Shown here in pieces: positions 46,491 to 63,829 of a stretch of 64,000 nucleotides of DNA. The stretch is from an uncultured Alphaproteobacteria bacterium (GTDB lineage Bacteria; Pseudomonadota; Alphaproteobacteria; RF32; CAG-239), in NCBI GenBank assembly GCA_934276635.1, contig CAKQTH010000001.1:72098-136097 (forward strand), read 5' to 3'. A program made the position numbers and the translations under genes. Under the pieces are notes generated by a model. The model was not told where the DNA came from, ran no database searches, and was given only the letters and a program-made list of their open reading frames with translations. How positions within the stretch are numbered: position 1 is the first letter of the stretch; each line of letters begins with the position of its first letter.

Positions 46491-46582
46491 ACTATATGAT
46501 TTCAGGCGTTTTTGTGTTGACAAAATGTTGCTGCACCGGGTTACACTGATTGTATATTTATTATTTTACAGGGAGAGGATAA

Positions 46583-47110
46583 ATGGAAGATTCGGACACA
46601 AGAAGCAACGCGGAGCAAAAGCTCGACGAGCAGATTGCGCAGGGAGGAATGTCCAAGGAGCAGGAGGACGCCGCACTTGACAATGCAATTGCGCAAGAGA
46701 CGATGGAAACGCCGACAAAGGCGTATAATGATTTCGGCGAGATATTGAAGGACAAGTCGCTGTCGGAAGAAGAGCAGTCAGCGTATTTAGATATTCTTAT
46801 TGATTAGGAAAAACAGGAACTTAGCGAGAGGGATAAGATATTGCAGCTGAGGGGAATAAAGTCGACGGAGAAGACACCGACGAAGAAATCGGGAGGTCAG
46901 CAGAATGCGAACAGCAACGCGGCGCAGCAGGCAATGATGGCCAAAAAACGAGATAATTCAAGGTAAAAGCAAGGCTCCGATGTAAGGGGAAGAGCAAAAA
47001 AGAGCAAGTCGTTGATTAGCGGCGCAAGATGCAGAAAAAAACAAATCGTTGATGAGCAGTCGCGGCGCAGAAAAAATAGCAAGAAAAAACCGGCGGAAAT
47101 CATAAAATGA
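46583..47110 (+). pseudogene. purine-rich reading frame (Lys/Glu/Gln/Arg-rich product) interrupted by in-frame TAG (46805) and TAA (46964); probable decaying gene
   Basis: RBS GGGAGAGG before ATG 46583; the same frame stays otherwise open for 176 codons through two nonsense codons; imperfect about 40-nt tandem repeat at 47006-47085. Confidence 0.35.
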
Positions 47111-47397
47111 AATCAAGCCGTTTTTTTATATTCATACGAAACCTTTGTTTCGCAGTATCAATGAGAGCCTAGCGGGCATTATCATCGAAGTAAGGATCGT
47201 AGATTCCCGGAGTCTTGTCTGCGTGCAAAGCAGCAACAGTGGTAACAAGACCGAGAGTACCATAAACAATAAAAGCTCCTAGTAATATACTCTAAAATTT
47301 TTGGAAGTTAAACTATATAATAGACAGAAATATATCTGGAATAACTATACATTACAACGCGATATATTTTTTGCTATTTAAAAACAAATTCAAGATA

Positions 47398-47970
47398 TTA
47401 TTTAAATGTCACATCTATTTGACAATTGTTTTCTGACGCTTTGCAGTCACATAATGCTGCGGCAATAGATGCAGCCCGTTCTTGAATATCTTTGGCGGAA
47501 TAGGTATTTCCGGTTTTTAAGTGGAAGAAATAGTCGAAAGTTGATGCTCCTCCCCAATCAGCGGTTACAATAGATGAACATGCATCTTTTGAAAGATTGT
47601 AAAATGTCATATAAAATTGGTCAGGCCTATTTTGGTATGATATCAAAAATACGATTCCTCCCATTGCATTTTTTACGCATCCATACTTGTATCCATCTAA
47701 ATCACAATCTTTTACCATTTCTTCAGGAAATACGCCGAGCTGATATCCAGTTTCCAAACTCAATCCTTTATAATTTCCCTGACCGGCAAAAGTTGTACGA
47801 ACATTAGATGTAACAGTCGATAACTGGTCAATCAGCTTGTTCGTTTTATACTTTGCCATAGCTTTTGAGTATCCGGCGATACCGGCAACGGAGAGAACGC
47901 CGACGATTGCGAGTACGCCGAGCATCTCAATCATCGACCGACCGGACTGGTTTGAAATATAGTTTTTCAT
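47398..47970 (-). CDS. type IV pilin-like protein (prepilin-type N-terminal cleavage/methylation domain)
   Basis: class III signal ...SGRSMIEMLGVLAIVGVLSVAGIAGY with Gly(-1) and Glu(+5); C-terminal Cys pairs; 190 aa. Confidence 0.6.
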   Translation of the reverse strand: MKNYISNQSGRSMIEMLGVLAIVGVLSVAGIAGYSKAMAKYKTNKLIDQLSTVTSNVRTTFAGQGNYKGLSLETGYQLGVFPEEMVKDCDLDGYKYGCVKNAMGGIVFLISYQNRPDQFYMTFYNLSKDACSSIVTADWGGASTFDYFFHLKTGNTYSAKDIQERAASIAAALCDCKASENNCQIDVTFK

Positions 47971-48059
47971 AATGATAGTCTCCGAAAGTTTCTTTCTAAT
48001 CTTTATTATATTGCAATATATCAGTGCTTGCGATACTGACTTTAGTCATAATCAGTTTA

Positions 48060-48068
48060 CCCCCCCCC
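48060..48068. repeat. homopolymeric C9 tract in the intergenic region upstream of the pilin-like gene
   Basis: ccccccccc at 48060-48068, about 90 nt upstream of the pilin-like start (47970, minus strand). Confidence 0.9.
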
Positions 48069-48090
48069 GGCGGTTGTCAAGGATTTTTTG

Positions 48091-49134
48091 CTATTTTACG
48101 CCGTTTTCAAGAATAGAAAATGTTTTATTTATCGGGTCTATTTCTGCTTTTGCTCCATAAGGTAAAATAAACATCGGGTCAGTGTGTCCGAAATCCATTT
48201 GTGTAATAACCGGCAAATCTTGTAATCCATATTCTTTTAATATGGCAGATATTGTATTGTCACAACAGTCAAAATCCTTTTGGGTTAAGCCTGTTCCGCC
48301 GGGACGGCCGAATATTATCCCGCTTGCAACTTCAAAAATCCCTGTCGCACAATAATTTCTGAGCCAATAACCGAAAATTTCGGGAAGAGCTTCTTTGCTG
48401 CAGGATTCAAAAAATAAGACAGCTCCTTTGAATGCATCTGTTGATGGCCAGATTGAAGTTCCTTTTATCATCTCCAACACTTCCATACAGCCTCCGATGA
48501 GCTTTCCTTGTACCTTTTCTTTCCCTTGTAAAAAATGCCATTTGGAGGGAGACATTTTTCTTTTTATGTTTTGATTTTCAGGTTTTCCCCAGTCTAACAT
48601 TTCATTAGTCCAGCCCTCAGATGACGGCTCGATTCGTCCGATAGGTTTTGTATCAAACAAAGTTTTGCGAACCGATGTTTCTAAGAGTTTGTGTAATCCG
48701 CAATTTTCTCCGAATCCGGACATAATGCTCGGCCCGTAAAAAGAAGATAAACCGGCATGCATGCATATAAAGTGGTTGGCTGTTGTGTCAGAATATCCCA
48801 TAAAGATTTTAGGATTGTTTTTTATGATATCAAAATCTATATACGGAAGAAGCCTGATAGTCTCGTCGCCGCCTATGGTCGATATAATTGCCTTAATCTC
48901 CGGATTGAGAAATGCGTTCATAAAATCTTGAGCCCTCTCTTTCGGGTGATTGTACAGCCAATCGTTGTCTTTTAATGTATGAGGCATGGGAACAACTTTA
49001 ACCCCGAAAGTTTGTTCAAGCTGCTGAACGCCGGTATCGTAACGATTTTTATATATGGAAGGGCCTCCCCATGATAAAGAAACAGTAGCAACAATGTCTC
49101 CGGTATTTAATTTATTCGGCTTGATTAACTCCAT
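48091..49134 (-). CDS. S66-family LD-carboxypeptidase (MccF-like)
   Basis: 347 aa; N-terminal KLNTGDIVATVSLSWGG, GYSDTTA nucleophile-Ser motif (MGYSDTTANHF), C-terminal His/Glu region. Confidence 0.75.
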   Translation of the reverse strand: MELIKPNKLNTGDIVATVSLSWGGPSIYKNRYDTGVQQLEQTFGVKVVPMPHTLKDNDWLYNHPKERAQDFMNAFLNPEIKAIISTIGGDETIRLLPYIDFDIIKNNPKIFMGYSDTTANHFICMHAGLSSFYGPSIMSGFGENCGLHKLLETSVRKTLFDTKPIGRIEPSSEGWTNEMLDWGKPENQNIKRKMSPSKWHFLQGKEKVQGKLIGGCMEVLEMIKGTSIWPSTDAFKGAVLFFESCSKEALPEIFGYWLRNYCATGIFEVASGIIFGRPGGTGLTQKDFDCCDNTISAILKEYGLQDLPVITQMDFGHTDPMFILPYGAKAEIDPINKTFSILENGVK

Positions 49135-49392
49135 AATTTTGCCCCTCTCGTTGCTCCAAAGTGTTCTTCATATTCTCATCTTATATTATCGGGATTATAA
49201 AAAAAGTAAAATCAAAAAAATAACAAAATGAATATCCGGATAGATGAAACTCGGAGAGCGCAGGAACGGCCGCATGGATGCGTGTGTTTTTTTTGAGGAG
49301 GGGGAAAGAGGAAAACTGAGCAGCGGTTATTTTTCTCCTCGAGCCTCTCCGAGGTCGCCGGTTCGCCCCATCGCGGTCGTGTGGTGTGTGCT

Positions 49393-49402
49393 GGGGGGGG
49401 GG
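49393..49402. repeat. homopolymeric G10 tract within a purine-rich low-complexity stretch
   Basis: gggggggggg at 49393-49402, about 260 nt upstream of the S66 peptidase start; surrounding GA-rich sequence 49300-49450. Confidence 0.9.
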
Positions 49403-49460
49403 AAAAAAAGGGGAAGAAAAAACGGAGAGAAGGGAAGAGTATGAGAAAAGTGTAAAAGCA

Positions 49461-49490
49461 CAAAAAAACCGCCAAAATGGCGGCTTATTT
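49461..49490. terminator. hairpin with flanking A/T runs (possible bidirectional terminator)
   Basis: A7 - CCGCC aaaat GGCGG - CTTATTT. Confidence 0.4.
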
Positions 49491-49706
49491 ATATTGGTCG
49501 GATTGACACCCTCTAAATTAGAAAAGAGATACCATCCGAAAAGCTTATAAAATACTTATAGCAGAAAAGCGCAGAAAACACAAGGCCTTTTTGCATTTTT
49601 TTATAAAAAATTTATCAAAGCGGGCAGACCTTCTAATCCACACTGCAGGGGTTGAGTTTTTGATACTGACCGCTGTGTTTGAAGTCAATTTTTTCATTTA
49701 ATTACA

Positions 49707-50177
49707 ATGACATATACTGCCCGCTTCGGTGATGAAACAAGGCCAAAGGCTTATTATGAGTTGACTTATATCAAATGTGCAGATGTCAGCAGAACTATAG
49801 CTATGGAAGAGACAAGTGAGATAAGGAATCTTCTCTCTCAAATAAAAAATACATTAAATAACATTCCTTACATAGTAGAAGAACAAAAAGGAACTAATTG
49901 GTATATCAAATGGTCAAATGGCATTCTAGAACAAGGAGGAACATATGATAAAGGATCACAAGTTACAGATTGGAGCGTTAATATTACAATGAATGTTGCG
50001 TTCATTAATACAAATTACCAATTAAATTGCCAACTTTATAGATTGGATAATGCAACAGGCTCGATTAACAACCAAGTATTTATCATAAACAGGACATCAT
50101 CGATGTTTACTGCCAGGCCTTATGGTGATGGCTCATCCCGATATATAGATTGGTACGCACGTGGATACTGGAAATAA
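49707..50177 (+). CDS. phage-associated hypothetical protein (possible minor tail protein)
   Basis: 156 aa; first gene of the tail-tip module; no recognisable motif. Confidence 0.4.
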   Translation: MTYTARFGDETRPKAYYELTYIKCADVSRTIAMEETSEIRNLLSQIKNTLNNIPYIVEEQKGTNWYIKWSNGILEQGGTYDKGSQVTDWSVNITMNVAFINTNYQLNCQLYRLDNATGSINNQVFIINRTSSMFTARPYGDGSSRYIDWYARGYWK

Positions 50178-50193
50178 CAGAAAGGAACAGATA

Positions 50194-50736
50194 ATGCCTG
50201 ATACGACGCTTTCAGAAGCACTAAAGGAAGCCTATGCTTCAGCTCCGAGTGATGTAATTTTATTGCACACCCTGGAACTGAGGCATCCGTCTTTTATAGA
50301 TGATCAGGGCCGACCGACAGCTATCTGGGTCGTGCGTGATCACGTTAACCACACCTGCACGCTTGAAAACTCGGCTCCGCTCAATCCTGGAGAGGCTGTT
50401 GAGTTTATTGCCATGGCGTTTGATCTGGAATTGCCACCGGTCAACAACACGCCGACACCTGAGATTTCGGTCACGATCGACAACGTTTCAACTGAAATGA
50501 TTGCTTATCTTGACCGGGCTATTGAGACACAGGATATGATCGAGCTGACATACCGGTCATATCTGTCTGACGACCTGACAACGCCACAGATGGACCCGCC
50601 GATAACCTTGGTTATTACTGATATTCATGTGGACTGCTATAAAATAACGGCTACAGCCCGCATGATGGACATCGGCAACAAGTCGTTTCCAAGTGAAAAC
50701 TATACCGTTAAAAACTATCCGGGATTAACACGATGA
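50194..50736 (+). CDS. phage minor tail protein (gpL-like position; possibly DUF1833 family)
   Basis: about 180 aa, RBS AAAGGAAC; sits immediately upstream of the NlpC/P60 and J-like genes as in lambda L-K-I-J. Confidence 0.4.
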   Translation: MPDTTLSEALKEAYASAPSDVILLHTLELRHPSFIDDQGRPTAIWVVRDHVNHTCTLENSAPLNPGEAVEFIAMAFDLELPPVNNTPTPEISVTIDNVSTEMIAYLDRAIETQDMIELTYRSYLSDDLTTPQMDPPITLVITDIHVDCYKITATARMMDIGNKSFPSENYTVKNYPGLTR

Positions 50737-51137
50737 CACATTTTGCTTGTAAATATATAGGCTTGCCCTGGGTTGCCGGTGCGCAAGGCCCTGATGAATT
50801 TGACTGTTGGGGAATGGTGCGCTGGATCCTGAAGCACGAATACGGCATAGATGTGCCGGCGGTAAATGTTAATCCGGATAATCTTCGGAGCGTTTTAGTT
50901 GCGTTTAAAGAGGATCCTGCATTCCGGGCGTTTAATGAAGTTGAAAAACCGCAAGACGGTGATGTTGTTCTGCTTCGTCAGTCAAAACATCCGGTTCATG
51001 CCGGCTTATGGTTAGATGCAGACGGCGGTGGTGTTTTACATTGTTGCCGCGATGCCGGTGTTATCTTTCAAGATTTGCCATCAATGCGTCTGTGCGGGTG
51101 GCAAATAGACAGCTATTATCGAGTAAAAGGAAAATAA
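50733..51137 (+). CDS. phage NlpC/P60-family cell-wall peptidase (lambda gpK-like)
   Basis: 134 aa; catalytic Cys in FDCWGMVRW, His in HPVHAGLWL, second His near C-terminus (VLHCC). Confidence 0.7.
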   Translation: MTHFACKYIGLPWVAGAQGPDEFDCWGMVRWILKHEYGIDVPAVNVNPDNLRSVLVAFKEDPAFRAFNEVEKPQDGDVVLLRQSKHPVHAGLWLDADGGGVLHCCRDAGVIFQDLPSMRLCGWQIDSYYRVKGK

Positions 51138-53372
51138 ATGATTTACTTTTCACACATTACAAACCCTTTTCAGCCGAATAAGGGTCGGATAGACAATGTC
51201 CTTGATGACGGCAAAACCGTTTGGGACATGGTCCGGGAACAGAAAGTGGACCTTTCGCGCCCGACAATATGCATGATAGACGGTGACGCAGTCCTCAGGA
51301 AGTTTTGGAACGATACCGTTCAGCCGAAATCCTTGGTCTGCTTCATCACTTTGCCACAAGGCGGTGGCGGTAAAAAGTCATCAAACCCGATTCAGGTTGT
51401 TTTGATGGTGGCCGTTGTTGTTGCATCTGTTTATACGGGCGGTGCTGTGGCGGCGGCCTATGGTGCTGTTTGGGGTAGCGTTGCGGCGGCGGCAGTTTCC
51501 ATTGGCGGAAGCTTTCTCGTCAACACATTCGTTCCACCACCTAAGGCCTCTCTTAACGGGTCCGGTTCGTCAAACTCCATAGCGGCACAAAGTCCGACTT
51601 ACTCCTTGCAGGCACAGGGTAATCAGGCCCGACTTGGCAACCCAATACCGGTCATTTACGGACGACACCTGATTTATCCGGATTTTGCCAGTCAGCCTTA
51701 TTACGCTTACGCCAACGATGAACAATACGTTTTTCAGGTTCATTGTATTGGCCAAGGTGAATACAACATCGAAAAAATCCGAATTGAGGACACGCCGATC
51801 AGCTCGTTTGAAGAGATAACCTATCAGATCATCAATCCGGGCGAAACAAACACCTTATTCCGTGATGATGTGGTGACTTCGCCTGAGGTTGCCGGTCAGG
51901 AACTTCTAAAAGGAAACACGATCGGACCGTTTGTCTTGAATCCGACCGAAAGTGAAATTGACCGGGTCGAGATAGATGTTGCTTGTCAGCGCGGCCTTTA
52001 TTATGCAAACGACAGCGGTGGTTTGAATACAAAATCGGTCCAATGGCAGATAGATGCCCGAAAAATTGATGATGAGGACAACGCGCTGGGTGACTGGTTT
52101 ACTCTTGGTACCGAAACAATTTCAGCGAATACCGTCAACGGAATTTACCGGACATTTGGTTATTCTGTAGCCAAAGGCCGATACGAGGTCCGGGCTACCC
52201 GGTTAGATGACAAAGACACATCTTCCCGCGCTGGTCACGAACTCAGATGGGCCTCGGCAAAAGGCTTTATTGTATCGACGCCGGATTACGGGAACGTAAC
52301 CTTGCTCGCAATTAAAATGAAAGCAACCAACAACCTGTCACAAAGGTCAAGCCGAATGGTGAACTGTATCGTGACAAGGAAGTTGCCGACATGGTCGCCA
52401 AGCGGTGGCTGGACAACTAAACAGCCGACCCGGTCAATTGCTTGGGCCATTGCAGATGTTTTGAAAGCCAGTTATGGTGCCGGTCTGACGGATAAGTCCA
52501 TAGATTTGCCGGGCCTTTACCGGTTAGATCAGACTTGGACGGCGCATGGCGACACCTTTAACGGAGTGTTTGACAGTAAGCTGACCATATATGAGGCCTT
52601 ATCAAAGATCTGTAAAGTCGGCCGGTCTGTTCCTTATATTCAAGGCGGCATTGTCCGGTTTGTCCGGGACGAGCCAAAATCCATACCGGTTGCTCTGTTC
52701 GGGCCGAGGAACATCGTTAAAAACAGCCTGACAATTCAATACATCATGCCGTCAGAAGATACGGCGGACAGCGTTTGCGTTCAGTATTTTTCGGACCGGA
52801 CTTGGAAGAACTCGGAAATAACAGGAAGTTTTGCGGGATCCAGCTCAGATAAGACGGCAACTGTTGAGCTTTTCGGCTGTACCGATAAAAACCAAGCTCT
52901 CCGGGAGGCCATCTATATGGCGTTGGCTAACCGATATCGCCGGCGCATTGTGACATTTTCAACCGAACTGGAAGGTCTGATTCCGAGCTATGGGGATTTA
53001 ATCTCGATCACACACGATATGCCGCATTGGGGAACCGGCGGTGAAATCCTGTCAAAAAATGACATGACTTTAACGCTATCGGAACCGGTTGAGTTTACCG
53101 AGGGTCAAACTCACTATTTAGCCTTACGAACCAGAACTGGGGAACTATCCGGGCCATATCGGGTAAAAGCCGGATCGCTTCCGACAGAAGTTATTTTACT
53201 GGATATGCCCGATATTCCTATTGATACTGGGACCAATGCAGAACGAACTCATTTTGCCTTTGGAACCCAAGACAAATGGGGAACATTAGCTCGTGTAACA
53301 GGAATTAAACCGCGCTCCGGCAAGGTTGAAATTACTGCCGTCATTGAGGACAGCAGAGTTCACGCCAATTAA
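51138..53372 (+). CDS. phage tail host-specificity protein (gpI-like N-terminus fused to gpJ-like tail-tip domain)
   Basis: 744 aa; N-terminal Gly-rich hydrophobic segment GGGGKKSSNPIQVVLMVAVVVASVYTGGAVAAAYGAV resembling the lambda gpI C-terminus; central GNPIPVIYGRHLIYPDFASQPYYAY...RYEVRATRLDD resembling the J/GTA-g15 'putative phage tail' domain. Confidence 0.65.
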   Translation: MIYFSHITNPFQPNKGRIDNVLDDGKTVWDMVREQKVDLSRPTICMIDGDAVLRKFWNDTVQPKSLVCFITLPQGGGGKKSSNPIQVVLMVAVVVASVYTGGAVAAAYGAVWGSVAAAAVSIGGSFLVNTFVPPPKASLNGSGSSNSIAAQSPTYSLQAQGNQARLGNPIPVIYGRHLIYPDFASQPYYAYANDEQYVFQVHCIGQGEYNIEKIRIEDTPISSFEEITYQIINPGETNTLFRDDVVTSPEVAGQELLKGNTIGPFVLNPTESEIDRVEIDVACQRGLYYANDSGGLNTKSVQWQIDARKIDDEDNALGDWFTLGTETISANTVNGIYRTFGYSVAKGRYEVRATRLDDKDTSSRAGHELRWASAKGFIVSTPDYGNVTLLAIKMKATNNLSQRSSRMVNCIVTRKLPTWSPSGGWTTKQPTRSIAWAIADVLKASYGAGLTDKSIDLPGLYRLDQTWTAHGDTFNGVFDSKLTIYEALSKICKVGRSVPYIQGGIVRFVRDEPKSIPVALFGPRNIVKNSLTIQYIMPSEDTADSVCVQYFSDRTWKNSEITGSFAGSSSDKTATVELFGCTDKNQALREAIYMALANRYRRRIVTFSTELEGLIPSYGDLISITHDMPHWGTGGEILSKNDMTLTLSEPVEFTEGQTHYLALRTRTGELSGPYRVKAGSLPTEVILLDMPDIPIDTGTNAERTHFAFGTQDKWGTLARVTGIKPRSGKVEITAVIEDSRVHAN

Positions 53373-54412: not shown

Positions 54413-54524
54413 TTTTTGCCTTTTATACGAACCGGTGTATGCGGATTATGAGCATGACACCCCGGAAACAATACATCAAATTGATAGGAATAACGTAGTT
54501 TATGACGATTTATGTACAAATTAA
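54330..54524 (+). CDS. Rz1-like outer-membrane lipoprotein spanin (o-spanin), overlapped with the Rz-like gene in a different frame
   Basis: 64 aa; lipobox LSALSGC; starts inside the Rz-like ORF and extends past it (overlapped spanin architecture). Confidence 0.45.
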   Translation: MSKRLKEVGIAWLILSALSGCTTNINGDFCLLYEPVYADYEHDTPETIHQIDRNNVVYDDLCTN

Positions 54525-54592
54525 AAGATTTTGTTTGTATTCTCAGATATAATTTGATAGTATGTCTAATTAGCAAAATTGAAAGAGGTGTT

Positions 54593-55480
54593 ATGTTAAT
54601 ACTGAATATCAATGGGCCAATAAATTCTGGTAAATCAACCGTTTCTAAAATTTTGGTGAATATGTTCCCTAACACCACTTTTATTGAAGTGGATGAGCTG
54701 ATGAGTGATGAGGAACAAGCAAAGCTAGGATTATCCCTTCAACAAGGATGGCGGGAACGTCATAAACGATTGAAGCAGAAATTGCAAGCTCTTAAAAAAT
54801 CGCGTGCGTATGAAACTGTGATTTTTGCCTATCCGATTGCTGACAATACCTATCAAGATTGGAAAGCCTTGAAGGATGAACAGACAAAGTTTTTAAACAT
54901 TACCCTTGCACCCAATTTAGAGGAATGTCTAAAAAATCGTGGTACGCGAGAGTTGGACGATTGGGAACGGAACAGAATCAAAGAAATGTATGAGGAAGGC
55001 TATCAAAATCGTCCTTATTCCGACTTTATTATCAATAATGATAACCAAACACCCGCAGAAACCGCTGAGATTATTAAAGATTTTATTGAACATGCTTTAT
55101 CCCCGAAACAGCAATGGTTACATTTGGTTGAAAGGCGTTGGCCGGCTTTGTTAAATGGCGAAAAGACTTCCACATTCCGTTTGAATGAAGGATTTGTTCA
55201 TAAAGGATTTTTGGTCTATAAAGACTGCCCAAAAGAACAGTGGGCTGAGGTTGTTTATGTAACACAAATTTATTATGTGCCTTTGCGCCAAGCTATTGAA
55301 ATTGACGGATATGATGAACATACACCGGACATGGAAACAGCACTAAAACAAATGCGTGTTCATTACCCAGATATTACTTTGGATACGCCCATTTTATTTG
55401 CTCAGCATTTAGGCGCCCCAGAAACAAAGCAAAAATATCCACAAGAAGTGGCAAAAATTTTAAAGGAAATGGAAAAATGA
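54593..55480 (+). CDS. P-loop kinase (CPT/AAA_33-like) fused to a C-terminal ASCH domain
   Basis: RBS GAAAGAGGTG; Walker A NGPINSGKSTVS; C-terminal ASCH-like LLNGEKTSTFRL... Confidence 0.55.
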   Translation: MLILNINGPINSGKSTVSKILVNMFPNTTFIEVDELMSDEEQAKLGLSLQQGWRERHKRLKQKLQALKKSRAYETVIFAYPIADNTYQDWKALKDEQTKFLNITLAPNLEECLKNRGTRELDDWERNRIKEMYEEGYQNRPYSDFIINNDNQTPAETAEIIKDFIEHALSPKQQWLHLVERRWPALLNGEKTSTFRLNEGFVHKGFLVYKDCPKEQWAEVVYVTQIYYVPLRQAIEIDGYDEHTPDMETALKQMRVHYPDITLDTPILFAQHLGAPETKQKYPQEVAKILKEMEK

Positions 55481-55947
55481 GCTTACCAATTTGCTATCTT
55501 ATTTGTGGATTTTTGGGAGCTGGTAAGACAACTTATTCCCAAAAACTTTCAAAAGAAACGGGGGCCATTCATCTGAATCCAGATGAATGGTGTATGAAAT
55601 TGTTTTCTAAAGAAGAATATGAGCAAAATTGGAGCAAATGTTTTTCTGAAACAATAGAGCATCTTTGGAAAAAAGCAGAGGAATATGCTAAAAATGGAAA
55701 ATCCATTATTTTCGATATGGGATTTTGGACAAAACAAAGTCGGGATGAAGCAACACAAAGGGCAAAGGATTTGGGATTCAATCCTGTTATACATTTTTTG
55801 AATGTGCCAGATGAGATTTTGAAACAGCGGATTAGTGCTAGGAAAGGGACAATTGCAGAATATAATTTAAAGCATTTTGATGAATTAAAGAAGCAATTTG
55901 AAGAACCAGAAGAAAAAGAACAATATGTAAGAATAGAAAATTATTGA
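55477..55947 (+). CDS. P-loop kinase (AAA_33 / predicted small-molecule kinase family)
   Basis: Walker A CGFLGAGKTTYS, 156 aa; ATGA overlap with the upstream gene. Confidence 0.6.
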   Translation: MSLPICYLICGFLGAGKTTYSQKLSKETGAIHLNPDEWCMKLFSKEEYEQNWSKCFSETIEHLWKKAEEYAKNGKSIIFDMGFWTKQSRDEATQRAKDLGFNPVIHFLNVPDEILKQRISARKGTIAEYNLKHFDELKKQFEEPEEKEQYVRIENY

Positions 55948-55963
55948 TAAAAAGGAAGAAATA

Positions 55964-56449
55964 ATGCGTAAATCTGCTCGAGCAATCATAATTACAAAAG
56001 AAAACAAACTGCTATTGATGAAACGCACAAAACCGAATGAGGTATATTATGTTACAATCGGTGGTGGTATTGAAGATAGTGAAACATCTGAGCAAGCATT
56101 ATTGCGTGAGTTAAAAGAAGAAAGCGGAAGCATTGTTGATAAACCAGTTTTTGCTTTTCATTATGATGATATTGAAAGGCAAAATAGTGTGGATTTTTAT
56201 GTTTGTAAGGAAATTAATCGTACAAAACCGACAGGAATAGAATGTACAAAGCTAAACATGTCGGGTAATCAATATGAACTTACAGAAATAAGTAAAGATC
56301 AAATTAATAATATTCCACTTAAACCAGATGCTATCAAGGATAAGATTATCAAGATTTTTACTGATCAAGTAGATAATACTCTCCTTGAACCAAAGCTGAT
56401 TAAAAATAAAATCATCAAAAATTTTGAACATATTATTGTTAGGATTTAA
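55964..56449 (+). CDS. NUDIX hydrolase
   Basis: Nudix box GGGIEDSETSEQALLRELKEESG; RBS AAAGGAAG. Confidence 0.75.
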   Translation: MRKSARAIIITKENKLLLMKRTKPNEVYYVTIGGGIEDSETSEQALLRELKEESGSIVDKPVFAFHYDDIERQNSVDFYVCKEINRTKPTGIECTKLNMSGNQYELTEISKDQINNIPLKPDAIKDKIIKIFTDQVDNTLLEPKLIKNKIIKNFEHIIVRI

Positions 56450-56563
56450 TACATTTCTCTTACATACAATTATAATATTTAATTGGTGTAATTTAAAAAA
56501 ATATTGCCTTAAATATTCTAATATGTTAAAATGCCGGCAGGTTAAAATAAGAGAGTTTCCCAT

Positions 56564-57154
56564 ATGAAAAAGAAGATATATTTGTGTCGACATGCAGAAA
56601 CTATTTGGAATATTCCAGAAAATCAGCACCTACAGGGGTGGTCAGATAGTGATTTAAGCGAAAAGGGAAGAAATCAGACTTTGTTATTAAAAGATTTTCT
56701 CTTGAGAAGTAATATCTTAAAAATTTATACAAGCCCTTTGCTGCGATGTATTAGGACATTAAAACCTTTTTTAGAAACTAGAAATGTTGCTTGTGAAACA
56801 TTGGATCAATTAAAAGAGATAAATTATGGTTTATATGATGGACTGCCTTCGCATGAAGCTCGTCTTAAATATAGAGATTTTTTTACAGTTTACGATAATT
56901 CTCAAGATCCACAATCAAATACAATCCAATTTCCAAAAGGTGAAAGCAGGTTCGATGCTGCAAAACGCTTGTTGGAGGTATTAAAACATATCGTTACACA
57001 GGATGGTACGTGCTTTATTATGACGCATGGAGGGGTCCTGAGTTCTCTATTCCTTCTGTTATTTAATAAAAAACGAGAATTTAATAACTGTGAAGTTATA
57101 GAGCTTTGGTATGATAATTTACAAAAAAAATTTATAATTGAGGGGGATAAATGA
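56564..57154 (+). CDS. histidine phosphatase superfamily protein (phosphoglycerate-mutase-like branch 1)
   Basis: catalytic RHAET at residues 9-13 (LCRHAETIWN), 196 aa. Confidence 0.7.
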   Translation: MKKKIYLCRHAETIWNIPENQHLQGWSDSDLSEKGRNQTLLLKDFLLRSNILKIYTSPLLRCIRTLKPFLETRNVACETLDQLKEINYGLYDGLPSHEARLKYRDFFTVYDNSQDPQSNTIQFPKGESRFDAAKRLLEVLKHIVTQDGTCFIMTHGGVLSSLFLLLFNKKREFNNCEVIELWYDNLQKKFIIEGDK

Positions 57155-58800
57155 TAGAACTGCGTACAAAAAGTCCTTTAACAATAGTAGGGGTTAATTT
57201 AGGTCATGACGGTGGTGCGTGTATAATCCATAAAAATAAAATTATTAGTATTTCCGAGGAACGTTTGACCCGAAATAAAAAAGGATATGGATATCTATCT
57301 GCTTTGTTTTACTGTTTAAAGTCGCTTAAAATTACTGTAAAAGATATAGATTATGTTGCATTTAGTACTTATCATAAAAGACTACCTAAAGGGTATTTAG
57401 GCTTATTTGAAAGTTTGGGATTTAATAAAAAACAATCAATTATTATTGATCATCATGAATCTCATGCGTATGGTTCCTATTATTTATCAGGATTTGACGA
57501 GGCTCTGGTTGTTGTAATGGATGGCATGGGAAATGAAAATATGTCCGAAAGTTACTATCTGGCAAAAGGAAATAAAGTTAAAATTATCGGACATAATGAT
57601 TTAGATCGCTCTATATATGCTGGAGTAGGACGAGCATATGAATCGTTTACTAACTTCATTGGCTGGCCTACAACATGTGCTGGAAAAACAATGGGATTAT
57701 CTGCTTATGGGAAAGGAAACTACAAAAATATAAGATTGTTTAAAATAGATGATAATTTAAGGGTTTCCGCAGATTTGAAGAAAAAATATGGTGCTTCTGC
57801 TGAAGAATTTCTCTCAAGAAAGCATTTATCTGAACTTCTAAAAGAAAAAGGGAAGTTATCTGATGCAAAAGAAGTCGCAAAATTGATTCAAGATAAGACA
57901 GAAGATCTTTTTGTAGATCTAATAAAAAAATTAGTAGAGAAAACAGGCATTAGAAAGTTATGCTTAACAGGCGGATGTGCCCTTAATTGTGTTGCAAATC
58001 AAAAGTTATTAGATTTAGGCATTGTCGATGAAATATTTGTACCTCCATACCCCTGTGATACAGGACAAGCTGTTGGAAATGCCATAGCGGGGCTTGCTAA
58101 GAAAAAGATATATATAAAAGAAAGATTACCACACCCGTATTTTGGGAGGATGTATGATCGTAAAGAGATCTTAGATGTTTTACAAAAGAAACAGGAAATT
58201 TATCCACTTCCTTATGAAATAAAAATTAAGGATTATGACTTTAAAGAAATTCTTGATGAAAAAAAATATAACGAAATAATAGCAGACTATATTAAACATG
58301 ATCTTGTAGTCGGCTGGTTTCAAGGAGATTCCGAATTAGGACCGCGTGCCTTAGGTCATCGCAGTATTTTAGCAAATCCGACGTCCAAAACGATGAAGGA
58401 TCACATAAATATGAAAGTGAAGAAAAGAGAACCGTTCAGGCCTTTTGCAGCAAGTCTTTGCGATGATGATGTAGAAACATATTTCAAAAGTGGGCTTCAC
58501 GATAGATTTATGTCTTTTGCAATAGATTTAAAGGAAAAATATATTCCATTAATTCCAGCTGTTTTACATGTTGATAATACCTGTCGCCTTCAATCAGTTT
58601 CAAAAAAAGAGAACCCGAAGTATTATTCCTTAATAAAAGAACTAAAGAAAAAAATTGGTGTTCCAATGGTTTTAAATACTTCTTTTAACGAGGATAAAGA
58701 ACCAATAGTGGAAACCCCTGTTGATGCTTTAAGGCATTTAGCTGTTGGTAATATTGATGTTCTTGCTATGGATGATTTTATTGTGAGGTTAAAGAAATGA
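57151..58800 (+). CDS. NodU/CmcH-family O-carbamoyltransferase (TobZ/NovN-like)
   Basis: HHESH metal motif, GWFQGDSELGPRALGHRS, KREPFRPFA, HVDNTCRLQSV, NTSFN: the full set of family signatures; 549 aa. Confidence 0.85.
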   Translation: MIELRTKSPLTIVGVNLGHDGGACIIHKNKIISISEERLTRNKKGYGYLSALFYCLKSLKITVKDIDYVAFSTYHKRLPKGYLGLFESLGFNKKQSIIIDHHESHAYGSYYLSGFDEALVVVMDGMGNENMSESYYLAKGNKVKIIGHNDLDRSIYAGVGRAYESFTNFIGWPTTCAGKTMGLSAYGKGNYKNIRLFKIDDNLRVSADLKKKYGASAEEFLSRKHLSELLKEKGKLSDAKEVAKLIQDKTEDLFVDLIKKLVEKTGIRKLCLTGGCALNCVANQKLLDLGIVDEIFVPPYPCDTGQAVGNAIAGLAKKKIYIKERLPHPYFGRMYDRKEILDVLQKKQEIYPLPYEIKIKDYDFKEILDEKKYNEIIADYIKHDLVVGWFQGDSELGPRALGHRSILANPTSKTMKDHINMKVKKREPFRPFAASLCDDDVETYFKSGLHDRFMSFAIDLKEKYIPLIPAVLHVDNTCRLQSVSKKENPKYYSLIKELKKKIGVPMVLNTSFNEDKEPIVETPVDALRHLAVGNIDVLAMDDFIVRLKK

Positions 58801-59867
58801 ACAATTTAACATTATCTCAACCAGAATTAAAACAACGAATTGTAATAGGGCGTGATTTTTATCTAGAAGAATTAGAAAAATTCATAGCAGTATCTGATTA
58901 TAAATCTATATTTTTAATTTATGATACAAATTTAAAAGAAGAAAAAAAGAAAATTGCCAATTTATTAAAAAATAAACGTTTTTCATCATATGGAATTAGA
59001 GCAAATCAAGAAAAAAGTACTAACTTGGTAATCTCGGCAATAAAAAAAATGCAAATTTTTGGTTGCCTTAGAAACACGTTATTAATTGCTCTTGGTGGTG
59101 GTTTTATAGGAGATATTAGTGGTGTAGTCTCATCTGTATATATGCGTGGAATAGACTATATCCAGATAGGAACAACTGCTATGTCACAATTTGATGCAAT
59201 AGTACAAAAAGTAGCTGTTAATGTGAATCATTATAAAAATATTATGGGCGCATTTCATTCGCCAATATTAACTTTTTGCGATACAGAATTCGTTGAAAAA
59301 GACCCTTCATGTTTAAATTCGTTTTGTGAAGTAATCAAACACAAAATTATTGTAAAAAGTTCTTTGAAACAACTTCAAGAGCTAGAAAATAAAGAGCTAA
59401 AAAACGGAGAATTTCCAAAAATTATTTATGATTCTTTGAAAGTAAAATTGAATTGCGCAGCTCATGATCCATTTGATACTCTTGGAATACAAAAAAAACT
59501 GTCCTTAGGGCATACTATTGCGAATATCATAGAAACAAAAACATCTTTAACTCATGGGGAAGCTGTTTGGATTGGATTGCTAGTGGCTATAAGAGTTTCA
59601 CTATTTTTATATCCTAAATCTAATTATTTAGCTGATCTAGACGTTTTTACAAACAATTTTATAGTAAAACACAAAGTGAAACTCCCTAAAATAACTCTAA
59701 AGAAAGACGATATTCTACCACTCCTAAAGAAGGATAAAATATCTATGGATAAGGGGTTATCTATGGTGATAATCAATGAGAAAAATGAAGTTTCTATAAA
59801 AAATGATTTGTCTATTGATACAATTATCTCTGCGATGAGAAAAACACCTTATATAAGAGTAAAATAA
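58797..59867 (+). CDS. 3-dehydroquinate synthase-like sugar-phosphate cyclase (DHQS/DOIS/EEVS superfamily), divergent
   Basis: GGGFIGDISGVVSSVYMRGIDYIQIGTTAMSQFDAIVQKVAVN, KNIMGAFHSP, metal-binding GHTIANIIE...HGEAVWIG; 356 aa. Confidence 0.7.
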   Translation: MNNLTLSQPELKQRIVIGRDFYLEELEKFIAVSDYKSIFLIYDTNLKEEKKKIANLLKNKRFSSYGIRANQEKSTNLVISAIKKMQIFGCLRNTLLIALGGGFIGDISGVVSSVYMRGIDYIQIGTTAMSQFDAIVQKVAVNVNHYKNIMGAFHSPILTFCDTEFVEKDPSCLNSFCEVIKHKIIVKSSLKQLQELENKELKNGEFPKIIYDSLKVKLNCAAHDPFDTLGIQKKLSLGHTIANIIETKTSLTHGEAVWIGLLVAIRVSLFLYPKSNYLADLDVFTNNFIVKHKVKLPKITLKKDDILPLLKKDKISMDKGLSMVIINEKNEVSIKNDLSIDTIISAMRKTPYIRVK

Positions 59868-59872
59868 ATTTT

Positions 59873-60949
59873 TTAGAAATTTGTAACGGTTGGTATTTCT
59901 TTTAGGCTCTTAATGTCTTTCTTTTGCTTATACCATTCAAACAGCCAGTTCCACATTTTATAAATAAATACTTTATCCTCTTTTATATAGCCCAATACAT
60001 TAGAAACGAGGAAACAGCGGCAAAACATTCGAGAAACAAATTCTTTTCTCCAATCAAAATATTTAGAGCATTCTGCCACAGTCGGTAAAAACATTTTATC
60101 AAAAAAGACATCAAAAGTGAGTTTTGCGTCCACCAAATTAATCGGGCCAGTTAGACTACTGTTATTTTTTATAAATATGGGGTTATATTTCATTAGTAAA
60201 AGGCGCTGAGAACTCAAAAACCAGAAACATATACTAATATCGCATAAAATTGGATTTATTCCGCACTGGTCTAAATCCCAAAACAACCAATCATATGAAT
60301 AATTAAAATCATATAAATCGCCGTGTGACAACGTTGTCAATGTAATTGAATCCGATTTGAAGTATTCTATTACAGTCGCAATAGATTCTGAAATACTATC
60401 AAGTAAATCAGGTGCCAGTCGTGAAATATCTTGAAGAAGTAGCAAATAATCATTTTGGTAAAAATTTACGGCCCTTCCTTTAAACAAGCGATCTTCAAAA
60501 AAAGTCGCCGAAGGATAGTTGTCTGTTTTTTCAGAGGATTCAATATTTTTTAAATATAGGTGCGATAATTTATTGAAAAATTGTGTGATTTTATTCCTTT
60601 TATGAATATCTCTATCATACCCTACATACACAAACCCATTCTTTTCTTTTGCTTGAATATATTCATAAACAAGAACTGTCGTCTTGTTTTTTCCAAGAAT
60701 TGAGTCCAGTATTTTAGGCGTAGGAAATAAAAGACTAAAATTTTTTAGTCGTATAAAATCACTTTGTGAAAAATTATCATAAAAAAACTTTAAAAAATAT
60801 TTATTATTTTCAATTGTTAGTATTCCGCTTTTTATTTTAGAAGGTCTGTCCTTGTCGAAAAACGGTAGAAAATCAAACCCATGAATTTTATTTTCTATAA
60901 TTAAATTGATACATGACGTTAATTGACAATGTGTCACACTTACACTCAT
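59873..60949 (-). CDS. aminoglycoside-phosphotransferase (APH)/choline-kinase-fold kinase
   Basis: Brenner catalytic motif LSHGDLYDFN plus downstream D (WDLD); 358 aa; only minus-strand gene in the island. Confidence 0.65.
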   Translation of the reverse strand: MSVSVTHCQLTSCINLIIENKIHGFDFLPFFDKDRPSKIKSGILTIENNKYFLKFFYDNFSQSDFIRLKNFSLLFPTPKILDSILGKNKTTVLVYEYIQAKEKNGFVYVGYDRDIHKRNKITQFFNKLSHLYLKNIESSEKTDNYPSATFFEDRLFKGRAVNFYQNDYLLLLQDISRLAPDLLDSISESIATVIEYFKSDSITLTTLSHGDLYDFNYSYDWLFWDLDQCGINPILCDISICFWFLSSQRLLLMKYNPIFIKNNSSLTGPINLVDAKLTFDVFFDKMFLPTVAECSKYFDWRKEFVSRMFCRCFLVSNVLGYIKEDKVFIYKMWNWLFEWYKQKKDIKSLKEIPTVTNF

Positions 60950-61081
60950 TTGAGCCTTCCATATTTTTTACATATACTTGCTATTATAAATAATTTGTTA
61001 GAAAGACACAAGAATTTTGTATGTTTTTTTTGTTTTTTAGCAGAAAAACTCAAATAAATATTTTATTTTGATTGAAATTGG

Positions 61082-61089
61082 TGTATAAT
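61082..61089 (+). promoter_or_regulatory. candidate extended -10 promoter element (TGTATAAT) in the divergent intergenic region
   Basis: TGnTATAAT at 61082-61089, 30 nt upstream of ATG 61119. Confidence 0.3.
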
Positions 61090-61118
61090 AATATAAATTC
61101 ATTTTAAGGTATGAAATC

Positions 61119-62297
61119 ATGCATCGGCAATTTGATACATATACGACCTTTTTCGATTTGGGAATAGATCATGCAGATTTTCCATTCTGTTCGTTGGAGT
61201 ACTGTTCTGGTGGATTTAACAAAAAAAGAGCCCATACTAATCGTATTATTTGGAAGAGATTAACTGGACAGGATTTATCAGCAGAAGAAGCTATTCAAGC
61301 TGATAAGTTTATTCAGGGAATAGGTTATGCTGAACAAAAAAAGAAATTTGAACATTGTGCTTTATGTTCGGATACATTTACGTGTGAACCTCTTGTAGAG
61401 TTTTCTGGAAAATTTAATTATTGGGATTTAGCTTTTCCAACAAGCCCATATACTCCAGCAGGAATTATGATTTATTTAAAAGAACGTAAAAAATTAAGAT
61501 TAGAGGTTATTGATGCATTGTCGAAAGAGGCCTTTGAAGAAATTGAGACAATAGCAAACTCCCTTTTTTACATACTAAAAAATGAAATACCCGATCTATG
61601 TGGTGTAAATATACTGTTTCATCAAATTTCGACCTCTCAAGCCTGTTTACATGGGCATGTTGAGCTGATGCTTCACAATATAGACCCTTCTCTTGGATGT
61701 TTTTTAAAGAAACAGCGTCCATTTGATATTTGTGCGAACTACCTAAATAACCAACTTGAAGAAAAAGATAACATATGTTTTTTTACAGAGGGAATTAGAT
61801 TGAATAGTAAATCTTTTTCCGTATTAGAAACAATGAAAATTATTAAAGAATACCGCAATAATACTGTTAATTTATTTAATTTTTTTTCTGAAGTACGTAA
61901 AAATTACTTTAGTAAAACATCTAAACAAAAAAAGGCAAAAGAATTGCTTTCACAAAAAGGGTTTAATTCTACACAAATTGACCAGATATTATTTGATATA
62001 ACACCGGCCCCAATAAATTGTGTATATTTTACTTACTATAGGAATGAATATTTCATTTCTATTATTCCAGAATTAATTTTAAGATCAATACCATTAAGTA
62101 AAATCACAGATGATGAATACTTGTTATACAATTTAAAGTATAATGCCATTCAACCACGTGAAGAAAAGTTTTTTTTAGAAGAAAAGCACCCATTAATACG
62201 ACCAAGTATAAAATTGAGACAAGCAATGCCTGCTGATAAAAAAATATTAATCTTAAAACAAATCGTTCACAATATATTATCAAAGGAGCGTTTATGA
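61119..62297 (+). CDS. hypothetical protein; tentative GalT/HIT-like nucleotidyltransferase
   Basis: 392 aa; N-terminal Cys pair FPFCSLEYCSGG resembling the GalT zinc site; His dyad LHGHVELML resembling the HIT/GalT H-x-H motif; assignment weak. Confidence 0.4.
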   Translation: MHRQFDTYTTFFDLGIDHADFPFCSLEYCSGGFNKKRAHTNRIIWKRLTGQDLSAEEAIQADKFIQGIGYAEQKKKFEHCALCSDTFTCEPLVEFSGKFNYWDLAFPTSPYTPAGIMIYLKERKKLRLEVIDALSKEAFEEIETIANSLFYILKNEIPDLCGVNILFHQISTSQACLHGHVELMLHNIDPSLGCFLKKQRPFDICANYLNNQLEEKDNICFFTEGIRLNSKSFSVLETMKIIKEYRNNTVNLFNFFSEVRKNYFSKTSKQKKAKELLSQKGFNSTQIDQILFDITPAPINCVYFTYYRNEYFISIIPELILRSIPLSKITDDEYLLYNLKYNAIQPREEKFFLEEKHPLIRPSIKLRQAMPADKKILILKQIVHNILSKERL

Positions 62298-63100
62298 TGG
62301 GATTTTCTTTTCTTACATTGCCCCATTCACATTTAGTAAAAATAGTTAGTTTATTAGATAACTTGTCTAATGATGAAAAAGGCTTCCTACGTAAAAGTGG
62401 GGATATTACGATAGACAATGGACATTACTTCATTAAGGAATTGAGAAAAGAACGAATTATTTTTCCTCCAGATCAATACATTAAATTTTATCAGGAGTAT
62501 TATCACAAATTAAATTCCGCTATTGAGACATATCCTTCCTATGGTATGTGGTGTATAGACAATAAAGTATTTGAGGTTCAACCATTTATTGCTAATCAAT
62601 CTATAATGATGAGAGGGACTCTATTGGATTGGAATACCTTAAAAAAGACTTATACAAAAATACTACAAGATATTGATTCAGTTCAAAGAAAATATGGAAC
62701 AAAAGATTTTTCTTTCGTTGGAATTGAAACTGCGATTTGGAATTTTTCAACAGATGGACGTCTGTATGATTTTAATCCTGTGCGCCTATATAATGCAAAT
62801 TGTCTATTTACCACAACAAATGATCCTGATATGCTAGAAAAAACAAAGTTTCGTAATTTCTCGCCTTTTGGAATGAAGGTTAATTTATTAGCAACAGTTG
62901 GAATCGCAGTCAAAAATAAAGATTTTATCTTGCAAAATAATCCAAACAATTGGTTTTTGGAGTTAAAATCGATACTTAGGGATAATCTTAAGGCTCAAGA
63001 TAGTGAAAAAGTCGATCTACTTGAAAATCAAACTGATTTTCCTAAATGGCATCCGTTACAAATAATAAATAATTTCAACAGGGGGGGAAGAAATGGATAA
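62294..63100 (+). CDS. hypothetical protein, degenerate APH-fold kinase paralogue (catalytic His-Gly-Asp not conserved)
   Basis: STDGRLYDFNPVRL aligns with SHGDLYDFNYSYD of the 59873-60949 kinase but lacks the HGD triad; RBS AAGGAG. Confidence 0.45.
   Translation: MMGFSFLTLPHSHLVKIVSLLDNLSNDEKGFLRKSGDITIDNGHYFIKELRKERIIFPPDQYIKFYQEYYHKLNSAIETYPSYGMWCIDNKVFEVQPFIANQSIMMRGTLLDWNTLKKTYTKILQDIDSVQRKYGTKDFSFVGIETAIWNFSTDGRLYDFNPVRLYNANCLFTTTNDPDMLEKTKFRNFSPFGMKVNLLATVGIAVKNKDFILQNNPNNWFLELKSILRDNLKAQDSEKVDLLENQTDFPKWHPLQIINNFNRGGRNG
63081..63087. repeat. G7 homopolymeric tract overlapping the RBS of the IMPase-like gene
   Basis: ggggggg at 63081-63087. Confidence 0.9.
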
Positions 63101-63829
63101 ATATTCGGATTTAGAGAAAATACTGCAAAAATTAATATCCCTTTCTGTTGAAGCTGGAGAACTAGCTAAATCGATTAAAGAAAAAAAAGAATGTGCAGAT
63201 GAAGAAATTGAAATTTTTATCCGTAATAATTTAAAAGACTTCAATTATTCATTTATAGGAGAAGAAACAAAACCTTTTATAAATCAAACTTCTAACCGTT
63301 GTTTTGTTGTCGATCCGATTGATGGCAGTCTGAACTATCAGAATGGTGATGAAAATTGGTGTGTTTCTATATCTCTTATGGAGAATGAAGCGCCGCTTCT
63401 TGGGGTTGTTTTTGTTCCTGAAAAACATATGCTTTTTTACGCGCAAAAAACAAAAGGGGCAAAAATCCTTGATTGTCAGAAACATTCCGAAAGCAGTCTT
63501 GTTATTAAAAAGAAATCAAATTTAATTGAATTATTAGGGGCATCCGACAATTCTACCAAGATCAGAGAAATCTTGCTAAATACTGTTTTAGATAAAAATT
63601 ATATTCGTTTCCGACATACAGGATCCATAGTTGTTGCTTCTTTAAAGCTAATAATGGGGGAGCAAGAGGTATAATATATGGGGGAAAGACTCATTTGCAT
63701 GATATAGCAGCTGTATGGTTAATTGTTAAAGAAAGCGGTGGGGAAACATTCTTTAATAAGGATAAAGGATTGTTTATTGCGACACAGGATAAAGAGACAA
63801 TGGAAAAATTAGAGAGGTTTTATTTATGA
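63093..63829 (+). pseudogene. inositol monophosphatase-family gene split by a +2 frameshift at a G5 run (63680-63684)
   Basis: N-terminal frame 63093-63674 carries the metal motifs FIGEETKPF and FVVDPIDGSLNY; the C-terminal signature HDIAAVWLIVKESGGE (WD-AAG...EAGG) lies in the +2 frame 63677-63829. Confidence 0.55.

Follow-up and report, generated by a model that had tools for sequence, protein, structure and literature searches.

We analysed a 64,000-nucleotide stretch of DNA from an uncultured gut alphaproteobacterium (the window), and within it two long G/C homopolymers that lie on either side of a gene for an S66 peptidase (LD-carboxypeptidase/MccF-like, with Pfam S66 N- and C-terminal domains; 48091..49134, minus strand). 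The first, tract 1, is a run of nine C residues at 48060-48068, situated between the S66 stop codon and the start of a gene for a type IV pilin-like protein of 190 amino acids (47398..47970, minus strand), 89 nucleotides (nt) upstream of the pilin ATG. The second, tract 2, is a run of ten G residues at 49393-49402 that lies 259 nt upstream of the S66 ATG and opens a near-pure purine stretch on the plus strand (49393-49440). Viewed on the strand of the genes, tract 1 is a G9 before the pilin gene and tract 2 a C10 before the S66 gene. Read directly, the sequence has both runs at the positions, in the inverted orientation and at the distances given by the initial annotation, which saw in them possible phase-variation switches, an inverted pair around the S66 gene, or the mark of an old insertion. 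As argued below, tract 1 is probably a slippage-type expression switch in a promoter shared by a family of pilin genes, and tract 2 a leftover in an integration scar.

Both runs stand out from their surroundings. They are the sole G/C runs of at least eight bases within the window; the C9 is its sole C run of seven or more, the G10 is its longest G run, and the third-ranked G/C run is a G7 at 63081-63087, which was considered as a frameshift site and set aside, being only a run in the ribosome-binding-site (RBS) region between two overlapping genes. Models with independent, identically distributed bases and first-order Markov models, at 41.8% GC, put the chance expectation at ~0.02 for the C9 and 0.016 for the G10, and both homopolymers are thus far longer than base composition predicts. 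Because the tracts recur, position for position, in over 20 independent assemblies of gut metagenomes, which come from several studies and were made with several assemblers, they are real and not assembly artefacts. The exact S66 and pilin proteins are encoded on dozens of human-gut metagenome contigs, from the Hadza and other cohorts. Among named relatives, the closest Era matches (77-79% identity) come from metagenome-assembled genomes labelled as uncultured Alphaproteobacteria, a placement with which the presence of genes for GapR and GcrA in related loci is consistent.

The two tracts are separate features and not a pair. Their complementarity extends over 13-16 nt, made up of the homopolymers and 3-4 flanking bases, and comparison of both flanks revealed no extended inverted repeat between the C9 and the G10. 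Since loci without tract 2 still have a conserved tract 1, their bracketing of the S66 gene is a coincidence, and the notion of an inverted pair falls with it.

A putative promoter module with a poly-G spacer

On the gene strand, the spacer between the S66 and pilin genes reads TAG-CAAAAAATCC-TTGACA-ACCGCC-GGGGGGGGG-TAAACT-..., followed by the RBS GGAG (47980-47983, minus strand) and the ATG. The G9 of tract 1 makes up 9 of the 15 spacer bases of a putative pilin promoter. On one side of it lie a perfect -35 hexamer, TTGACA (48075..48080, minus strand), and the A-rich stretch AGCAAAAAATCC that precedes this hexamer (48081-48092, minus strand); on the other lies a -10-like hexamer, TAAACT (48054..48059, minus strand), which is TAAAAT or TAGAAT in paralogues, with T1, A2 and T6 kept. 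Tract 1 is therefore placed between the -35 and -10 elements of a promoter that is defined by sequence alone. A second, perfect TATAAT with a weak -35 can be read nearer the gene, 35 nt before the ATG (48005..48010, minus strand), and is a possible tract-independent promoter specific to the window locus.

The same module, consisting of TTGACAA, 4-9 nt, G8 or G9, and TAnAnT, was found in at least five genomic contexts. In an alignment of 13 promoter instances, TTGACAA is invariant (13/13), the 4-9 nt behind it are freely variable, and the -10 differs at non-critical positions only (TAAACT, TAAAAT, TAGAAT); TTGACA and the -10 are 14, 15 or 19 nt apart. Pilin paralogues equipped with the module lie after MarC (L100-103), after HSP20 (L104/105) and beside a gene for a type II topoisomerase B subunit of the gyrB/parE family (L106/107), and a further paralogue, P0050, has it 91 nt before its ATG (L123). 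Next to Era in strain L114, the module precedes a gene of a different kind, encoding an acidic repeat protein of 578 amino acids. In three of the pilin-paralogue contexts the G8/G9 module stands 39-40 nt before the ATG, and in these compact paralogues it is the sole promoter-like sequence within that interval. The paralogous pilins are ~50-56% identical at the protein level, and the promoter module is conserved nonetheless. Three paralogues were recovered from one sample at matching coverage (11.7-11.9x), from which it follows that a single genome carries several module-bearing pilin genes. Paralogous genes for a major subunit are thus scattered over the genome, every one of them with its promoter homopolymer and all with a common box, as in the fim genes of Bordetella. 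Related genomes do not lack the tract: the module recurs with G8 or G9 in other strains and in the paralogue contexts. A more distant pilin homologue (L125) has neither tract nor module, which makes the module specific to this clade. Two broader scans gave no further instances: searching viral contigs for the module returned matches from unrelated organisms only, and searching Joint Genome Institute (JGI) metagenomes for the tract 1 allele pattern returned just two unrelated chance matches.

Versions of the module without an uninterrupted G run were also encountered. On the plus strand of the window, a decayed copy recognised by comparison with L114 (46517..46547) has TTGACA, 10 nt, GCACCGGGT and TACACT; here a non-homopolymeric 9-mer (46533-46541) takes the position that the G9 has in L114. 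This copy precedes an open reading frame (ORF) of 74 codons (46583-46807, plus strand), which is a truncated remnant of the acidic, internally repeated 578-amino-acid protein; L114 retains the intact gene (4495-6231) and a true G9 (6273-6281). The P0050 pilin, identical in protein sequence, occurs with two versions of the promoter. In L123 (165-200) there is a G9 followed by TAAAAT, and in L119-122 (~2390-2420), which come from samples that also yielded the window-type strain, the tract is interrupted (GAGATGGGA) and a T of the -10 is lost, so that this copy may be a locked or silenced paralogue. Together with GGGAG9, the interrupted tracts GAGATGGGA in L119-122 and GCACCGGGT in the window look like locked or decayed versions of the switch proposed here.

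Spacing within the module bears on which tract lengths would be favourable for transcription. The G9 pilin promoters have a -35/-10 spacer of 15 nt, and the GGGAG9 promoter and that of the 578-amino-acid gene have one of 19 nt, whereas tract-less promoters with the same AATCCTTGAC module have spacers of 17 nt (n=2). If canonical spacing applies, the assembled tract states would thus be sub-optimal, since both 15 and 19 nt deviate from 17 nt. A survey of native -35/-10 spacing found too few strong promoters in 122 kb to derive an optimum.

ATAGCAAAAAAT, the sequence that runs into the pilin promoter (48083-48112), recurs directly past the pilin stop codon (47366-47395), and in L110 and L114 this downstream copy runs on into a tract-less TTGACA-N17-TAATGT promoter. 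The recurrence may mean that a promoter and its pilin gene form a bounded cassette, or else that a neighbouring cassette was lost.

The pilin-like gene

The product of the gene behind tract 1 begins with a prepilin class III signal (MKNYISNQSG/RSMIEMLGVLAIVGVLSVAGIAG) that has G at -1 and E at +5 and leads into a hydrophobic helix, as expected of a type IV pilin. Its matches to Pfam PilS and Bundlin are above their cut-offs, TIGR02532 is at its cut-off (16.6 bits against 16.3), and Pfam N_methyl is below. The PilS family matched here is the type IVb pilin family of Salmonella, unrelated to the pilS of Neisseria. The C-terminal two-thirds of the protein are hypervariable, making this type IV pilin-like protein a surface-structure target of the sort on which contingency loci act, and among 6161 pilin homologues none falls between 100% and 58% identity. 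Comparison of the window (47398-47970) with L001 (7165-7746) shows identical flanks and an identical first ~75 nt of the gene, after which the remaining two-thirds share ~50-60% DNA identity; the variable region has, on this comparison, been swapped between strains by what is best described as allelic replacement. Several Logan contigs stop ~50 nt into the pilin gene, as expected if several alleles coexist per sample.

Length variation

Three alleles of the tract 1 module were found: G9, G8 and GGGAG9, the last being that of the commonest lineage. Two assemblies from the topoisomerase context, L106 and L107, have no single-nucleotide polymorphisms (SNPs) over 4,980 nt, and their sole difference is G8 against G9 in the pilin promoter. 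The comparison of tract lengths across strains that had been proposed for the C9 thus gave a difference between otherwise identical assemblies. The window and L002 are separated by 21 SNPs and 6 indels over 13 kb, two of the six indels being at the tracts (C10 vs C9 and G9 vs GGGAG9). Still closer are L001 and L004, with 2 SNPs and 2 indels over 5.8 kb; both indels are at G/C tracts, namely G9 vs G10 in a glycosyltransferase gene and C10 vs C7 in tract 2. The length of tract 1 therefore differs between very close strains, a finding of limited support given that most assemblies have G9. Contigs L006, L007, L112, L113 and L118 start, stop or have scaffold gaps at the tracts, which as a sign of length heterogeneity is suggestive at best.

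Other G tracts in the clade

The glycosyltransferase gene just mentioned lies outside the window, just upstream of the tRNA-Pro gene in island-free strains, and encodes a protein of 546 amino acids (GT2 and DUF1796) with an internal G tract: G9 in L001 (4729-4737), G10 in L004 (3348-3357) and G9 in L110 (1577-1585). With G9 the frame is intact at 546 codons (L001), and with G10 it is divided into ORFs of 300 and 258 codons (L004). Judged by its reading frames, this is a classic translational phase-variable gene. In L130, a sister species whose Era is 83% identical, a gene for an autotransporter-like protein of 983 amino acids (8082-11033) takes the orthologous position downstream of Era. It has a G8 in its signal-peptide codons (8135-8142), where G7 or G9 would truncate the product to 20 or 23 amino acids. 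The site downstream of Era thus seems to be a hotspot of variable surface genes. From the toggling of frames in the GT2 and autotransporter-like genes it follows that the clade uses G tracts in the positions classically occupied by contingency loci.

Tract 2 and the tRNA-Pro scar

Tract 2 is of another nature. Strain comparison gives it lengths of 7, 9 and 10, with one contig start and one scaffold gap at the site, and it is absent from L110-113 and L114, which keep the S66 gene and ~200 nt of its proximal upstream sequence, as well as from L108/109, which also keep the S66 gene. A distance of ~170 nt separates the tract from the AT-rich region proximal to S66, and around it no -35/-10 promoter motif was detected on either strand. 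A tract placed in a promoter or reading frame and conserved with its gene is therefore not what is found in the case of tract 2 and S66, and the proposal that the G10 acts as a switch for the peptidase finds no support here. The S66 gene appears to be a passenger between the two tracts, regulated by neither on present evidence. Copies at least 90% identical occur in another species (L108/109), near a tRNA-Pro gene and with neither pilin nor tracts.

What surrounds tract 2 is the remains of an integration site. The 3'-terminal 13 nt of a tRNA-Pro(CGG) gene (GTCAATCCGACCA; 49495..49507, minus strand), which is complete in L001 and L004, form an att-type island junction, and the bidirectional terminator hairpin of that tRNA lies at 49466-49486 (minus strand). 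Beyond the junction follows a phage tail module (gp53-like, DUF1833, NlpC/P60 and GpJ-like by family matches; 49707..53372, plus strand), an island or prophage remnant. In L001, L004 and L110, which have no phage-tail genes, trigger factor, DUF3078, GT2 and tRNA-Pro genes take the place of the tail module, and a complete tRNA-Pro(CGG) with its terminator is found ~355 nt upstream of S66. Behind the tail genes (54512-63674) are ASCH/kinase-like, carbamoyltransferase, DHQ-synthase-like and inositol-monophosphatase-like genes. Because the tail genes are followed by such non-phage, biosynthetic genes, the element is taken to be a prophage remnant or a composite island, with its far end beyond the window. 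A different element occupies this site in L114; it includes a serine recombinase, and a 150-nt end of it is homologous.

The sequence that separates the tRNA from S66 has a mosaic structure. Common to all lineages are ~200 nt next to S66 and a 52-nt GC-rich block (GGGGCGAACCGG...CCGCTGCTC; 49318..49369, minus strand) whose position relative to S66 varies and for which there was no Rfam match, no significant fold and no phage match. An 85-nt CT-rich piece bearing tract 2 is missing in L110-113 and L114, and in L110 a duplicated tRNA-end/terminator repeat flanks a 240-nt insert. Tract 2 is an unstable homopolymer in this lineage-variable scar between the tRNA-Pro(CGG) site and S66, and is probably non-functional. 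The idea of an old insertion junction is thus borne out in part: tract 2 does lie in a mosaic scar, and the junction itself is the tRNA-Pro(CGG) remnant, ~95 nt away. Tract 2 lies on the native side of that junction and is present in loci with and without the phage-tail island.

Other accounts of the tract 2 region were considered and rejected. A search of the GC-rich island beside the tract for riboswitches or RNA genes gave no Rfam match at gathering scores and nothing but noise when E values up to 5 were admitted, and the fold z-scores of the adjacent region (-0.45 and -1.57) were not significant. Its ORFs (66 and 87 codons, and 101 in lineage B) are of low complexity, match no family and run through the tRNA terminator, for which reason they were judged spurious. 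Neither the tract 2 segment nor the GC block had a match in IMG/VR, and descent from a phage was set aside for both. Behind the G10 on the plus strand (49403-49456) come a stretch that is rich in purines and resembles an RBS, a mini-ORF of four codons (ATG AGA AAA GTG TAA) and then the bidirectional tRNA terminator; this arrangement is probably meaningless, and the segment is absent in sister lineages.

The closest S66 homologue in a GTDB genome (74% identity) is in a metagenome-assembled genome (MAG) of a rumen alphaproteobacterium (L018), in a different operon and without pilin or tracts. GTDB synteny of S66 was thus uninformative as a test of tract conservation. The L018 operon (353-5249) comprises S66, a protein of 390 amino acids, a 347-amino-acid protein resembling class II aminoacyl-tRNA synthetases and AsnA, and methyltransferases, and recalls a microcin C-like (peptide-nucleotide) cluster that includes an immunity gene of the MccF type.

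Discussion

Phase variation by homopolymer slippage is textbook knowledge in a small number of cultured pathogens (Neisseria, Haemophilus, Campylobacter, Helicobacter and Bordetella). We consider it probable (roughly 0.6) that tract 1 is a slippage-type expression switch in a promoter shared by pilin genes and that tract 2 is a leftover of the scar. According to this view, tract 1 would form the spacer, a homopolymer, in a promoter module of the sigma-70 type (A-rich stretch, TTGACAA, 5 nt, G9, TAAACT) that is likely to have spread to several sites in the genome along with pilin paralogues and at least one further gene for a surface protein. As G runs slip in replication, the distance between the -35 and -10 elements would shift by 1 nt and promoter strength would shift with it. 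Each pilin paralogue could then be turned up or down independently, and the whole would constitute a contingency locus for a hypervariable surface antigen. We infer that the hexamers form a functional promoter, that tract length affects its transcription, and which length would correspond to the ON state: because the 15-nt spacer with G9 is 2 nt short of the 17 nt of the neighbouring tract-less promoters, G9 may correspond to low and G10-G11 to high expression, and, provided that canonical spacing holds, expression would rise after one or two steps of slippage. The early suspicion that the C9 in the pilin upstream region is a phase-variation candidate has thus gained substance, the run being the spacer of a conserved -35/-10 module that many pilin paralogues reuse.

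Several observations weigh against this interpretation. A spacer of 15 nt is unusual for an active sigma-70 promoter, and at the window locus the TATAAT nearer the ATG could drive pilin expression independently of the tract; the compact paralogue promoters have no such second hexamer. The single-base homopolymer difference between L106 and L107 could be a short-read consensus error, and among ~20 assemblies of the window's own locus there is no simple G8 or G10, only G9 and GGGAG9. No pilus assembly genes (ATPase, platform protein, prepilin peptidase or secretin) were found among the ten large window ORFs scanned. Finally, G9 is present in 10 of the 13 module instances, across paralogues, strains and spacer contexts (5, 6 or 10 nt, or after GGGA), and such near-universality is at odds with free ON/OFF drift and could reflect a fixed, selected length.

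The last point is the basis of the most serious competing explanation, which we regard as clearly less probable than a switch without thinking it far-fetched: tract 1 may be a promoter element of fixed length, its nine G residues selected as the binding site of an activator or sigma factor or as a structural spacer, and the rare length variants may be deleterious mutations or assembly errors. Such an element would fit the constancy of G9 whatever its distance to TTGACA, the retention of a 9-nt length in both decayed versions, and the fact that all three paralogues of the L110-type genome have G9. The distance between TTGACA and the -10 nevertheless varies (14, 15 or 19 nt), and no single geometric requirement is evident. 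At other loci of the clade the toggling of reading frames by G tracts is clear, and the G8/G9 difference is the sole change in 4,980 nt. Moreover, poly-G tracts in Campylobacter jejuni have a modal length of nine from mutational bias alone, short tracts tending to gain units and long ones to lose them (PMC3401435). By this analogy the dominance of G9 could mean that length is under selection, or could equally stem from a mutational bias of the same kind.

The remaining alternatives appear improbable to differing degrees. Both tracts might play no part in expression, being either low-complexity DNA that is hypermutable and neutral or artefacts of sequencing and assembly, a description that suits tract 2 well, since it is lineage-specific, lies in the scar region and has no motif, and that draws some force from the difficulty of poly-G for short-read platforms and the contig breaks there. 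We think it quite unlikely for tract 1, which holds a fixed place in a module conserved across paralogues of only ~50% protein identity, and tracts shared by over 20 assemblies, which differ in study and assembler, against a chance expectation of ~0.02, do not have the look of artefacts. Less plausible still is that the G run promotes recombination among the pilin paralogues, in the manner of the Neisseria pilE G-quadruplex (G4), and has no part in transcription. The replacement of the pilin variable region between strains with identical flanks, and the many paralogues per genome with a G-rich element upstream of each, would suit such a function; a single G9, however, lacks the four G runs of an intramolecular quadruplex, the paralogues are complete genes with promoter, RBS and ATG in place of promoterless silent cassettes, the same module precedes a non-pilin gene, and a promoter role directly explains the position between -35 and -10. 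We give hardly any credence to the view that the tracts are inverted ends of a mobile or invertible segment carrying S66. The C9 and G10 are indeed inverted and 1.3 kb apart around the gene, and in related genomes S66 occurs in differing contexts, each time beside tRNA-Pro genes. Yet their complementarity, confined to the homopolymers and 3-4 nt, does not amount to an inverted repeat, and there is no inverted copy among ~30 related loci. L110-114 lack tract 2 yet have kept S66 and tract 1, the S66 copy in the L108/109 context has neither tract, and tract 1 is found at many loci without S66.

If tract 1 is indeed a switch, it would by analogy belong to a known mechanism, the promoter-spacer homopolymer contingency locus, for which this clade is new. 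In porA, opc and fetA of Neisseria meningitidis, a poly-G or poly-C tract between the -35 and -10 elements alters transcription by slippage. The present case shares with these genes a G/C homopolymer (~9-13 nt) in the -35/-10 spacer of a surface-protein gene, and differs in that the module has been copied before a whole family of type IV pilin-like genes, in that its modal spacer is 15 nt, and in that its host is an uncultured gut alphaproteobacterium. Antigenic variation of pilE in Neisseria gonorrhoeae involves a G4 element and silent pilS cassettes. Here too a G-rich element lies upstream of a type IV pilin gene and there are multiple pilin-related sequences per genome; in contrast to the gonococcal system, there is no four-run G4 motif, and the paralogues are complete genes of the expressed type and not silent cassettes. 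By these features, tract 1 is not an antigenic-variation element of the Neisseria G4 type.

A closer parallel in genomic organisation is offered by fim2, fim3, fimX and fimN of Bordetella pertussis and Bordetella bronchiseptica, whose promoters contain a C-stretch (Willems et al. 1990, as described in PMC1891110) and in which tract length influences transcription, allowing the substitution of fimbrial serotypes (PMC1891110). In both cases scattered paralogous subunit genes each have a promoter homopolymer beside a conserved promoter box. The Bordetella fimbriae are nevertheless of the chaperone-usher type, whereas the pilins described here are of the prepilin type (class III signal, TIGR02532, PilS/Bundlin). 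The Bordetella tract lies between the site of the activator BvgA and the -10, where we find a consensus -35, and the Bordetella tracts (C7-C19) are longer than G8/G9. With pilins of the prepilin type and a consensus -35 in place of an activator site, tract 1 is not a member of the fim system. The poly-G/C phasome of C. jejuni (Bayliss et al. 2012, PMC3401435) is similar in other respects, as it likewise concerns a low-GC, gut-associated genome with many G/C tracts of modal length nine and surface-structure targets that include glycosyltransferases. The intragenic GT2 and autotransporter tracts fit this pattern. The C. jejuni tracts, however, are overwhelmingly intragenic and act by translational switching, whereas tract 1 is in a promoter, and the taxonomic class differs.

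These parallels raise the prospect, which we advance tentatively and rate at somewhat below even odds, of a clade-wide poly-G phasome in uncultured Alphaproteobacteria of human and animal guts, in which a portable G9-spacer cassette on orphan type IV pilin genes and other surface genes would operate alongside frame-shifting tracts in glycosyltransferase and autotransporter genes. If true, it would provide a commensal lineage with combinatorial, independently switching surface variants and would be the type IV pilus counterpart of fim serotype switching in Bordetella. The loci suggest surface variation of the same kind in an uncultured gut alphaproteobacterium found in the Hadza and in other human cohorts, extending to its pili, a glycosyltransferase and further surface proteins and arising presumably under pressure from the immune system or from phages. 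Although the switching mechanism itself is not new, to our knowledge phase variation is almost unexplored in uncultured gut commensals and has not been described in this clade. The signature TTGACAA-N5-G9-TAnAnT is simple enough to be searched for in metagenomes and may reveal the whole regulon. On the practical side, tracts of this sort break short-read assemblies and lead to spurious ORF calls and frameshifts in the annotation of MAGs.

A poly-G promoter spacer of similar architecture has arisen elsewhere. In two IMG/VR contigs from an unrelated organism or phage (L126 and L129), AAAAAAACTTGACA-AAACT-G10-TATAAAAT lies upstream of a gene for a secreted protein of 254 amino acids.

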